A stretch of DNA of 64,000 nucleotides from the NCBI RefSeq assembly GCF_988242995.1, contig NZ_OZ547043.1; one strand, written 5' to 3'. Position numbers and translations under genes: made by a program. Shown here in pieces: positions 5,503-16,081 of the stretch (positions are counted from its first letter, which is position 1; every line of letters begins with the position of its first letter). The notes beneath the pieces are model-generated. The model did no database searches. It had not been told where the DNA came from and saw only the letters and a list, made by a program, of their open reading frames with translations.

Positions 5503-6165
5503 TCACTCACCCGCCAGTGCGCGCGGGAACAGCACATTATTTTCCAGGCTGATGTGCTCCATCAGGTCATCAATCAGTTCATTAATGCCGTTATACATCG
5601 CTTTCCAGGTGGTGCAGGCTTCCGGCGGCGGTGTGACGTTATTGGTAGTGTGTTTGATTACTTCCAGCAGTTCACCCGCTTCATCGTGCTCGCTTTCCAT
5701 TACGCTGATTGGCCCCATTGCCTGGCTGCCCATGCCTTGTTTGATCATCGGGAAGAGGATCTGCTCTTCTTTCATCATGTGGCTGGAAAGCTCTTCATGC
5801 AGCATAGTCAGGTATTTTGTCAGCCCTTTTGGCACGCTCGGTTTGTCGGCGTGAACGCGTTCGACTTTAGTCGCTTGCAGGATCAGCTCCGGCAGTTGCT
5901 CGCGGTGACGATCGTGGTAGCGCACGATGATATGGTCGATGATTTCTGCCAGCGGGGCGCTACGCCAGTCTTTCTCAATCGGTTGTTCAGCAAGCTTTGC
6001 CAGCTCAGCTTCAATGACCTCAACATCCAGTTCTTTACGTGCCGCCGCACGCGCCAGCGTTTGCTTACCGCCGCAGCAGTAATCCATATCATATTTACGA
6101 AACAGAGCCGAAGCGCGAGGAATAGAGAGCGCCAGTTCACCTAAAGGTTGGTCGCGATAAGCCAT
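5503..6165 (-). CDS. ytfE: Iron-sulfur cluster repair di-iron protein (RIC)
   Basis: 220-aa [36 protein letters not shown]... with a ScdA_N/hemerythrin-like architecture. Confidence 0.95.
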
Positions 6166-6191
6166 AGCTGATACCTCATTCTTAATAAGAT

Positions 6192-6214
6192 AAGATGCAT
6201 TTTAAATGCATCTT
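6192..6214. promoter_or_regulatory. NsrR operator upstream of ytfE
   Basis: Near-perfect palindrome AAGATGCATTTTAAATGCATCTT about 30 bp upstream of the ytfE start, matching the NsrR consensus. Confidence 0.85.
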
Positions 6215-6272
6215 TAAGGCAAAAGCTATAACCCTTACGTAGCAGAGGCTTATTTAACTCACTGCCAGCGTG

Positions 6273-7238
6273 TCAACTTTCTGAGACAGATTCAGTTAAA
6301 GGTTTTTCTGGTTTTGCTCTGACCGCAATGACCACGCCAACCACTAACAGTGCGATACCGCTCAGCGTCATTAGTGGCGGCATTTGCTGGCGTAACAAAA
6401 AGGTGTACAGCAAACCTGCCAGCGTTTCGAAAACAATCAGCGGCCCGAGAATCACTGTCGGTAATCGCTGGCTGGCGACGTTCCAGCAGAGTGCGCCAAC
6501 CCATGAGCAAAGCACGGCTATTGCAATCATCAGACTAATAAACACCAGCGGACGGGGGCCAAAAGGTAGGGAGAAGTCCGGCGTTTGCGTATTCAGCCAG
6601 TAACAAGCGACGAGATAGCCGATAAGCGAAACCGGCAGCGTGACCAGCGCCTGCGCCGTCGCCCACATCATCGGATGTTTGTCGGGATTTTCCCGCAGCC
6701 AGCGGGCGTTGCGCAGGGCATACCATGCCCAGCAGACCACGGAAACTAACGCCAGCACGATGCCAGAGGTATAACGTGCCCAGTCAAAATCGGGGAGTCC
6801 GTGGTTTAACTCAGCAATATTCACACTCGCCAGGCCGATGCCAATACAAATCAGTGCCGGGGCGAGTTTTCCCCACGCGAGTTTGCCGTCGCGCTGGCTA
6901 TAAAGCAGATTGGCAAAGACAGGAATGACCACCGGCAGGGTGCCGATAATCATCGTGGAAACAGGCGCGCCAGTACGTTGAATGGCACTGGCAAGGCAGA
7001 AGTAATAAATGAGGTTGCCCATCATAGTGAGCATCAAGGCGGTAAGCCAGTCGCGACGCGCCAACTGACGCAGACGCACGCGCCCCAGCCAGGCAATGGG
7101 CAGCGCAATTAACCCTAACGCCAGATAACGCCCCATAGACTGCAACATCGCCGGGTATTCCGGCACGATCAACGGCCCGACAAAAATAAGCCCCCACATC
7201 AACCCTGCTAACAGGGCGTACAGCACGCCGCTAATCAT
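6273..7238 (-). CDS. ytfF: EamA/DMT-family inner membrane transporter
   Basis: About 321-aa hydrophobic ORF; start could be 7247 or 7238. Confidence 0.88.
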   Translation of the reverse strand: MISGVLYALLAGLMWGLIFVGPLIVPEYPAMLQSMGRYLALGLIALPIAWLGRVRLRQLARRDWLTALMLTMMGNLIYYFCLASAIQRTGAPVSTMIIGTLPVVIPVFANLLYSQRDGKLAWGKLAPALICIGIGLASVNIAELNHGLPDFDWARYTSGIVLALVSVVCWAWYALRNARWLRENPDKHPMMWATAQALVTLPVSLIGYLVACYWLNTQTPDFSLPFGPRPLVFISLMIAIAVLCSWVGALCWNVASQRLPTVILGPLIVFETLAGLLYTFLLRQQMPPLMTLSGIALLVVGVVIAVRAKPEKPLTESVSES

Positions 7239-14016: not shown

Positions 14017-14735
14017 AAATGCGCCTGTAAGGCTCTGTTACCAGCCGCGCCCTAACAGGCGCATACGATCTGACATTTGCATTCAACTTCGTTACTTACG
14101 GCCCGTAAACGGGCTGCCCGGATATGGAATCGATAACTGCTCCCCCATTTTATCCTCTTCAAGCTGGTGCTTTATGTAGTCACGTATCTTCGCCGTGTTC
14201 TTACCCACCGTATCGACATAGTACCCTCGGCACCAGAACTCCCTGTTTCTGTATTTGAATTTCAAATCCCCAAACTGCTCGTAAAGCATCAGACTGCTTT
14301 TCCCTTTCAGATATCCCATAAAGCCGGATACGCTCATTTTGGGTGGGATTTCCACAAGCATATGGATATGATCTGCGCAGCACTCTGCTTCCAGAATCCG
14401 TACGCTTTTCCACTCACACAGCTTTCTCAAAATACTGCCTATCGCCCTACGCTTCTCTCCGTAAAACGCCAGTCTTCGGTATTTCGGCGCAAAAACTATG
14501 TGATATTTACAGTTCCAGCGGGTGTGCGCTAAGCTCTTTTCGTCCCCCATTGGGACCCCCTTTTGATTTCTTGTTTGACACTTGCAGTTGCCAGACCGCA
14601 AGGTGTTTTAACAAATCAAAAGGGGTTTTAATAACTGGCTCAAAGCTGAAAGCTTTCCGGAACCCCCAGCCTAGCTGGGGGTTTTCTGTGCACAATAAGA
14701 CGGCTCCTGATTCAGGAGCCGTTGATGTTTCTGGG
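14017..14735 (-). mobile_element. IS200-like insertion sequence (IS200/IS605 family); boundaries approximate
   Basis: About 0.7 kb unit carrying a single HUH Y1 transposase, subterminal hairpins at both ends and no terminal inverted repeats, lying between ytfK and ytfL. Confidence 0.8.
14092..14550 (-). CDS. tnpA: IS200-family Y1 (HUH) transposase TnpA
   Basis: 152-aa product MGDEKSLAHTRWNCKYHIVFAPKYRR...HIHMLVEIPPK...SPFTGRK with the HUH motif; RBS sequestered in an upstream hairpin. Confidence 0.92.
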   Translation of the reverse strand: MGDEKSLAHTRWNCKYHIVFAPKYRRLAFYGEKRRAIGSILRKLCEWKSVRILEAECCADHIHMLVEIPPKMSVSGFMGYLKGKSSLMLYEQFGDLKFKYRNREFWCRGYYVDTVGKNTAKIRDYIKHQLEEDKMGEQLSIPYPGSPFTGRK

Positions 14736-14737
14736 GG

Positions 14738-16081
14738 TTACGCGACGCTTTCTTCTTTATCTTTAGCATCAGGCAATTTTGGCGAAAGGGCGGTGGCCTT
14801 GCTGTCGATTCGGGTCACCAGCAGCTGGTCGATGCGGTAGTTATCGATATCCACCACTTCAAATTTGTAGCCGGCGAATTTCACCGAATCGGTGCGTTTC
14901 GGGATCTTACGCAGCATAAACATCATAAAGCCGCCGATGGTTTCGTAGTTGCCCGACTGCGGGAACTCGTCAATATCCAGCACGCGCATGACGTCGTCAA
15001 TCGGAGTGCCGCCGTCAATCAGCCATGAGTTCTCATCACGGGCGACAATCTGCTCTTCCAGCCCCTGACCGACCAGATCGCCCATCAGCGTGGTCATCAC
15101 GTCGTTGAGGGTGATGATCCCCACTACCAGCGCGTACTCGTTCATGATCACCGCGAAGTCTTCACCTGCGGTTTTAAAACTTTCCAACGCCTCTGAAAGG
15201 GTTAACGTATCCGGCACAATCAGCGTGTTGCGAATTTGTACGCCGCTGTTCAGTGCCAGGCTTTGGTTAGCCAGCACGCGGTTCAGCAGGTCTTTAGAAT
15301 CGACATAGCCGATGATGTGGTCAATATCTTCATTACAGACGAGGAACTTAGAGTGCGGATGTTCCGCCACCTTATTCTTCAGACTTTGCTCATCTTCGTG
15401 GAGATCAAACCAAATCACGTTTTCACGCGGTGTCATTGACGACGGAACGGTACGGGATTCCAGCTCAAAGACGTTTTCAATCAGCTCGTGTTCCTGTTTA
15501 CGTAACACGCCCGCCAGCGCACCGGCTTCCACTACCGCGTAGATGTCATCAGAAGTGATGTCATCTTTACGTACCATTGGCAGTTTGAAAATACGGAAGA
15601 TCATGTTCGCCAGGCCGTTGAAGAACCACACCAGCGGGGTGCAAACGTACAGGCAGAAGCGCATCGGGTTGATGATACGCAAAGCCACTGCTTCTGGCGC
15701 AATCATACCGATGCGTTTCGGGGTTAAATCCGCAAACAGGATAAACATGCCAGTCACTAACGAGAAAGAGAGAATAAAGCTCAGTTGCTCAGAGAGTTCT
15801 GCCGACATATAGCGGGAGAACAGGCTGTGAAAAGCTGGAGAAAATGCCGCATCACCGACGATACCGCCGAGAATCGCCACTGCGTTCAGACCGATTTGGA
15901 CCACGGTAAAGAACATGCCGGGATTTTCCTGCATATTCAGAACGCGTTGGGCATTTATATTGCCTTCATCAGCCAGCAGTTTAAGTTTGATTTTGCGTGA
16001 GGCCGCAAGCGAGATCTCGGACATCGAGAAGAACGCACTTACAGCGATCAAGCAGAGTATGACTAAAATACTGTTTAACAT
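14738..16081 (-). CDS. ytfL: CNNM/CorC-family inner membrane protein (DUF21-CBS-CorC_HlyC)
   Basis: 447-aa ORF with an N-terminal membrane domain followed by CBS pair and CorC/HlyC transporter-associated domain. Confidence 0.93.
   Translation of the reverse strand: MLNSILVILCLIAVSAFFSMSEISLAASRKIKLKLLADEGNINAQRVLNMQENPGMFFTVVQIGLNAVAILGGIVGDAAFSPAFHSLFSRYMSAELSEQLSFILSFSLVTGMFILFADLTPKRIGMIAPEAVALRIINPMRFCLYVCTPLVWFFNGLANMIFRIFKLPMVRKDDITSDDIYAVVEAGALAGVLRKQEHELIENVFELESRTVPSSMTPRENVIWFDLHEDEQSLKNKVAEHPHSKFLVCNEDIDHIIGYVDSKDLLNRVLANQSLALNSGVQIRNTLIVPDTLTLSEALESFKTAGEDFAVIMNEYALVVGIITLNDVMTTLMGDLVGQGLEEQIVARDENSWLIDGGTPIDDVMRVLDIDEFPQSGNYETIGGFMMFMLRKIPKRTDSVKFAGYKFEVVDIDNYRIDQLLVTRIDSKATALSPKLPDAKDKEESVA

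Follow-up and report, generated by a model that had tools for sequence, protein, structure and literature searches.

The ytfE operator of Escherichia coli K-12 is said to have been described as an NsrR site by Bodenmiller and Spiro in 2006 and by Partridge and colleagues in 2009. A comparative study gave the K-12 form, GATGCATTTAAAATaCATC at position -46, as the top NsrR site of E. coli (Rodionov et al., 2005). In strain CFT073, whose NsrR protein is identical to that of K-12, the sequence AAGATGCATTTAAAATGCATCTT upstream of ytfE is the best-scoring NsrR palindrome of the genome, with a PatSer ln P of -25.13 (Mehta et al., 2015; PMC5320621). This site was positive in ChIP-seq with tagged NsrR; the peak has its summit at -50 relative to ytfE, and the start codon is 33 nt away from one half-site and 45 nt from the other (PMC5320621).

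Three further systems are useful for comparison. The hmp operators (TTGATGTATCTCAAATGCATCTT in E. coli and AAGATGCATTTGATATACATCAT in Salmonella) share the regulator, the 11-1-11 layout and one identical half-site, AAGATGCATTT, with ytfE, but the second hmp half-site is degenerate (ln P -18.22 versus -25.13 for ytfE) and hmp is additionally under FNR (PMC5320621). The yeaR-yoaG promoter is reported to combine activation by NarL with repression by NsrR (Lin, Bledsoe and Stewart, 2007). Its likeness to ytfE would lie in two inputs, a NarL/NarP-type site upstream and an NsrR palindrome that covers the core promoter, the NarL/NarP site of ytfE being a prediction. Finally, the complex of Streptomyces coelicolor NsrR with the hmpA1 operator (PDB 7B0C) is cited in PMC10783083; it shows a dimer of this [4Fe-4S] Rrf2-family protein on a 23-bp pseudo-palindrome, which offers a structural model for half-site recognition, and the abstract of that article reports no enterobacterial NsrR-DNA structure. 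Both the organism and the operator sequence of 7B0C differ from those of E. coli ytfE.

The locus examined here is closest to that of CFT073: the 23-mer, its distance from ytfE and its flanks are the same, and we found no difference over the aligned region. Compared with K-12, the locus, the position and the 11-1-11 layout are shared and 22 of the 23 bases are identical. The K-12 operator has A for G at sense position 17, which makes its repeat imperfect and gives it 30.16 rather than 30.85 bits with the weight matrix described below.

The palindrome upstream of ytfE

The window, by which we mean the whole stretch of 64,000 nt (64 kb) that was analysed, comes from the E. coli chromosome: when 1 kb around the operator was used as query, 5,416 of 5,426 complete E. 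coli genomes had a match, with cycA, ytfE and ytfF annotated beneath it. The product of ytfE is a di-iron iron-sulfur cluster repair protein, and carries the Pfam domains ScdA_N (8.5e-21) and Hemerythrin (5.3e-28). The features around the operator are as follows.

5503-6165, minus strand: ytfE (RIC/DnrN), an open reading frame of 220 aa with this annotation in thousands of E. coli genomes
6174-6177, minus strand: Shine-Dalgarno sequence GAGG, 8 nt before the ytfE ATG, in conserved alignment columns 38-41
6192-6214, no strand assigned: NsrR operator, a perfect 11-1-11 inverted repeat
6192-6202, plus strand: promoter-proximal NsrR half-site, reading AAGATGCATTT on the plus strand, in which 6198 is the polymorphic Y position
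6204-6214, minus strand: promoter-distal NsrR half-site AAGATGCATTT, an 11-bp motif with a score of 10.92, given for ytfE (45) in Table 2 of PMC5320621
6273-7247, minus strand: ytfF (DMT-family transporter), the upstream co-directional neighbour of ytfE

The operator lies within the 107-nt spacer between ytfF and ytfE, 58 nt after the ytfF stop codon and 27-49 nt upstream of the ytfE ATG, with 26 nt between. On the plus strand 6192-6214 reads AAGATGCATTTTAAATGCATCTT, the same 23-mer that an earlier note on this DNA had given, and on the ytfE sense (minus) strand it reads AAGATGCATTTAAAATGCATCTT. It consists of two arms of 11 nt, 6192-6202 and 6204-6214, which show 100% complementarity and have one nucleotide between them. 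The earlier note had spoken of a near-perfect palindrome; a palindrome it is, but a perfect one here, and it is the K-12 reference site that is near-perfect.

To score the site we used a symmetrised NsrR matrix made from the palindromes that PMC5320621 gives in its Table 4 (Mehta et al., 2015, CFT073); these were 25 distinct sequences once the ytfE entry had been left out, because its use would have been circular. With this matrix 6192-6214 scored 30.8 of a maximum of 31.0 bits, whereas the runner-up in the window reached 15.5 bits and the maximum over 200 shuffles was 19.7. This bears out the description of the site as an almost ideal match to the NsrR consensus. The two best NsrR-like sites elsewhere in the window, the runner-up at 55002-55024 (15.5 bits) and one at 53709-53731 (15.4 bits), both fall below the shuffle maximum and were rejected as composition-driven, since these weak matches at 53709 and 55002 reflect the AT-rich yjgL-yjgN/tabA/argI stretch. 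That part of the window (50000-56000, spanning the yjgL/yjgM/yjgN-tabA-argI region) has a GC content of 40-43%, compared with about 52% elsewhere. The yjgL-yjgN/tabA/argI stretch is present in nearly all E. coli; it is at least 80% covered in 4,577 of 5,426 genomes, often at 90-95% identity.

The site also agrees with mapped NsrR sites, a comparison proposed in the earlier note. It is identical to the ChIP-seq-positive 23-mer of CFT073: in NC_004431.1, this 23-mer begins at the coordinate published for the site, 5049128, with identical flanks and at an identical position, and the K-12 form is the one that tops the E. coli sites of Rodionov et al. (2005). The window strain carries the CFT073-type allele.

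The region is AT-rich and the promoter contains other conserved blocks, which would favour reading the palindrome as a chance repeat or as the operator of another regulator, for instance the Rrf2 protein IscR, instead of NsrR. Chance is excluded by the shuffled sequences. Allowing up to three mismatches, the 23-mer pattern occurred once in the 64-kb window and in none of 100 dinucleotide-preserving shuffles, and perfect 11-1-11 palindromes of any sequence numbered three in the window against 0.02 per shuffled window. Another regulator is opposed by the recovery of exactly this site in CFT073 by ChIP-seq of tagged NsrR (PMC5320621). The motif also stands beside an Rrf2 regulator and NO-detoxification genes across Gammaproteobacteria and Bacilli. 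The palindrome is, to our knowledge, unlike either the type 1 or the type 2 motif of IscR. We therefore regard chance or a different regulator as hardly credible.

Perfect palindromes of the same 11-1-11 geometry occur elsewhere in the window. At 760-782 on the plus strand (feature 758-784), a GC-rich one, AACGCCGACCATTGGTCGGCGTT, forms part of a 12-pair stem with a T-rich tail, and this feature looks like an intrinsic terminator. Another GC-rich one at 14700-14722 has a terminator-like score whichever strand is read and is found shortly before the end of a minus-strand open reading frame (14738-16081); it is adjoined by a GC-rich palindrome with one mismatch at 14661-14683. The pair (14661-14723) is possibly a bidirectional terminator.

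The putative core promoter and a conserved upstream block

That the operator sits at the ytfE promoter, as the earlier note had it, is supported by its position and by conservation, which together point to the following candidate elements.

6187-6192, minus strand: alternative candidate -10, TATCTT (4/6), beginning at the last operator base and conserved at 1.0-1.76 bits in 26 ytfE upstream regions
6199-6204, minus strand: preferred candidate -10, TAAAAT (5 of 6 bases as in TATAAT), exactly in the middle of the operator
6229-6244, minus strand: NarL/NarP 7-2-7-like block, sense TGCTACG-TA-AGGGTTA, conserved at 0.5-1.3 bits (background about 0.1-0.3)

The candidate -10 elements came from a relaxed hexamer search, in which the -35 elements of both were poor; a strict sigma-70 consensus scan of 6050-6400 returned no promoter. 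A perfect -35 consensus, TTGACA, at 6271-6276 on the minus strand over the ytfF stop codon was rejected as it has no usable -10 at 15-19 nt, and it is probably coincidental. Full-text literature searching, which did not reach the primary NsrR papers, found no mapped ytfE transcription start, and the supplementary tables of Kim et al. (2012, PLoS Genet) make no mention of ytfE or b4209. If TAAAAT is the -10, transcription would start near 6192/6191. Most other genera have TATATT in place of TATCTT, and so do some E. coli strains such as CFSAN061769 and E69. This conserved TATCTT/TATATT may serve as an alternative -10, belong to the first transcribed bases or extend the contact with NsrR. Under either -10 candidate, we infer that the operator covers the core promoter.

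The upstream block can be compared with known sites for NarL and NarP. A NarL/NarP 7-2-7 site consists of two inverted TACYYMT heptamers placed 2 bp apart. In E. coli the block matches TACYYMT at 6/7 (TAACCCT, plus strand 6229-6235) and 4/7, and in other genera the matches rise to 6/7 plus 7/7, as in TCCCCAT-AA-AGGGGTA. An anchored alignment showed a conserved T.CCCC.AAAGGGkTATA upstream of the operator, with a gap of 14 nt in E. coli and 13 nt in most other genera, and the distance from the block centre to the operator centre is 32.5-33.5 nt. At yeaR the NarL site is centred at -43.5. The ytfE inverted repeat reportedly overlaps the -10, an observation attributed to Bodenmiller and Spiro in 2006. 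If the block lies near -43.5/-44.5, TAAAAT would fall at -12 to -7, in agreement with that overlap. A NarP site was predicted upstream of enterobacterial dnrN/ytfE by Rodionov et al. (2005), and the conserved block, which resembles a NarL/NarP site, is consistent with that prediction.

Operator alleles and the hairpin reading

The published NsrR consensus is gATGyAT-N5-ATrCATc, and position 6198 of the window is its degenerate Y/R position. This position varies within E. coli. In a nine-strain alignment, sense-strand position 17 is A in most strains, among them K-12-derived RP437 and O157:H7, and G in the window and CFT073 (6198 is C on the plus strand here and T in K-12-type strains). We counted the two alleles with two 41-mer searches over 5,426 complete E. 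coli genomes; the searches cannot cross-match because the SNP leaves no common 28-mer.

G allele, a perfect palindrome (window, CFT073, LF82): 1,039 genomes, about 19%; 30.85 bits; hairpin of -10.4 kcal/mol
A allele, with one mismatch (K-12, O157:H7): 4,220 genomes, about 78%; 30.16 bits; hairpin of -3.7 kcal/mol

Rarer operator variants were also seen; strain JKHS016 carries a further change from T to C, and A14T is found in GF4-3, a divergent strain.

The hairpin energies bear on a different reading of the palindrome, in which it acts primarily as RNA, as the intrinsic terminator of the co-directional upstream gene ytfF, with a stem that is followed by AUCUUAUU. A minus-strand consensus scan did classify the sequence as terminator-like (10 pairs, 3 of them G-C, and 5 T in the next 8 bases), the hairpin is present in both the MFE and the centroid folds of the intergenic RNA, it reaches -10.4 kcal/mol in this allele, and the stem lies 58 nt after the ytfF stop codon. 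On the other hand, the stem is AT-rich with only those 3 G-C pairs and its U-tract is interrupted, and the allele found in about 78% of E. coli breaks the central G-C pair, which leaves a hairpin of -3.7 kcal/mol. No covariation is seen between positions 7 and 17 of the operator (asymmetric combinations, 19 observed versus 14.7 expected for ytfE and 50 versus 59.8 overall). In 10 loci among the matches of the cross-species scan below, a divergent chemoreceptor-like open reading frame lies on the far side of the operator, so that there is nothing to terminate, and yet the site is unchanged; moreover, the same palindrome precedes genes for Hmp, Rrf2 proteins and globins whose surroundings are unrelated. 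Rfam covariance models gave no match at E <= 1 in window positions 6000-6450. With a weak stem, no covariation and a site that is kept beside divergent genes, we have rejected termination of ytfF as the main role of the palindrome and consider it very unlikely. A minor, accessory effect on ytfF read-through is possible in strains with the perfect allele.

The C/T polymorphism at 6198 might itself be functional, through lineage-specific tuning of the response to nitrosative stress, an idea that we hold to be doubtful. If it were true, NsrR might have a higher affinity for the perfect allele, which would raise the NO threshold for ytfE induction; the hairpin of -10.4 kcal/mol could also partly insulate ytfE from ytfF read-through, and either effect would suffice for such tuning.

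The motif in other species and the role of the ytfE site

We scanned the 19-nt core GATGYATTTNAAATRCATC over 100,044 species genomes, and at least 120 loci matched. Since the loci were chosen by the core pattern, conservation of the 19 core bases themselves is circular; the independent evidence in this cross-species set consists of the flanks, the spacing and the gene neighbourhoods. The matches listed include loci from Enterobacterales, Acinetobacter, Legionella, Shewanella, Vibrio, Nitrosomonas and Bacilli. Among them, a gene for YtfE, flavohaemoglobin, an Rrf2 protein, a truncated globin or a DUF1971/YeaR-like protein adjoins the core in 91 of 120. Counted among the same listed matches by the genes that start just beyond the core, YtfE accounts for 35, flavohaemoglobin for 32, an Rrf2 regulator for 23, truncated globin for 17 and a DUF1971/YeaR-like gene for 4, the last being a further likeness to yeaR-yoaG.

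The flanks and the spacing can be read separately from the core. The AA/TT ends of the operator, which the search pattern left free, were present at 81 of the 120 loci among the matches listed. In 26 non-redundant ytfE upstream regions, operator positions 1, 2, 22 and 23 carried 1.76-2.0 bits, compared with about 0.1-0.3 in ordinary flank columns. The distance from the operator centre to the ATG was 35-39 nt in the 34 loci, among the matches listed, with an adjacent YtfE found by tblastn.

Two groups within this set deserve separate mention. In 14 loci among the matches listed, the palindrome is flanked on one side by a gene for a truncated (bacterial-like) globin and on the other by a divergent Rrf2-regulator gene. 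Examples of loci with an Rrf2 gene and a truncated globin gene are found in Legionella (L029, L056, L057, L062, L074, L077 and L078) and in Methylobacter (L054 and L071), which suggests that Legionella and methanotrophs possess an autoregulated NsrR-trHb module. The second group consists of six clostridial loci from Oscillibacter and other Clostridia (L017, L018, L021, L022, L059 and L069), in which the core has TT..GC instead of AA/TT flanks and adjoins TnpV (PF14198) genes of a transposon-like element. These six were set aside as apparently unrelated to NsrR.

We are highly confident that the palindrome at 6192-6214 is the operator by which NsrR, a [4Fe-4S] repressor of the Rrf2 family, controls ytfE. 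The sequence of the site, its statistical distinctness, its identity to a site bound by NsrR in vivo and the association of the motif with NO genes come from our analysis, and NsrR binding, NO sensitivity and ytfE induction are taken from the literature. Strong induction of ytfE, which the earlier note had linked to NO, is documented in CFT073, where ytfE belongs to the NsrR regulon and was up 69.6-fold under nitrate/NO-generating conditions (PMC5320621).

We propose the following sequence of events. In a homodimer of holo-NsrR, each winged-helix domain would occupy one of the 11-bp half-sites, AAGATGCATTT. As the 23-bp site would either contain the -10 at its centre (TAAAAT) or abut it at its promoter-proximal edge (TATCTT), bound NsrR would cover the core promoter and probably keep RNA polymerase off by occlusion. 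Nitrosylation of the cluster by NO would then cause NsrR to leave the DNA, and ytfE would be transcribed. This transcription is probably aided by NarL or NarP on the conserved block, which lies some 33 nt further upstream.

The NsrR operator of ytfE is already known, and its finding here is an ordinary one. It matters mainly as a positive control, in which a validated operator was recognised from raw sequence. Our minor additions are the allele counts across 5,426 E. coli genomes, the rejection of the hairpin as a terminator, and a promoter conservation map in support of the NarL/NarP input predicted earlier. For the biology of E. coli, the site couples the expression of YtfE, an iron-sulfur repair protein, to NO sensing by NsrR, and this coupling is part of the textbook picture of nitrosative stress in this organism.
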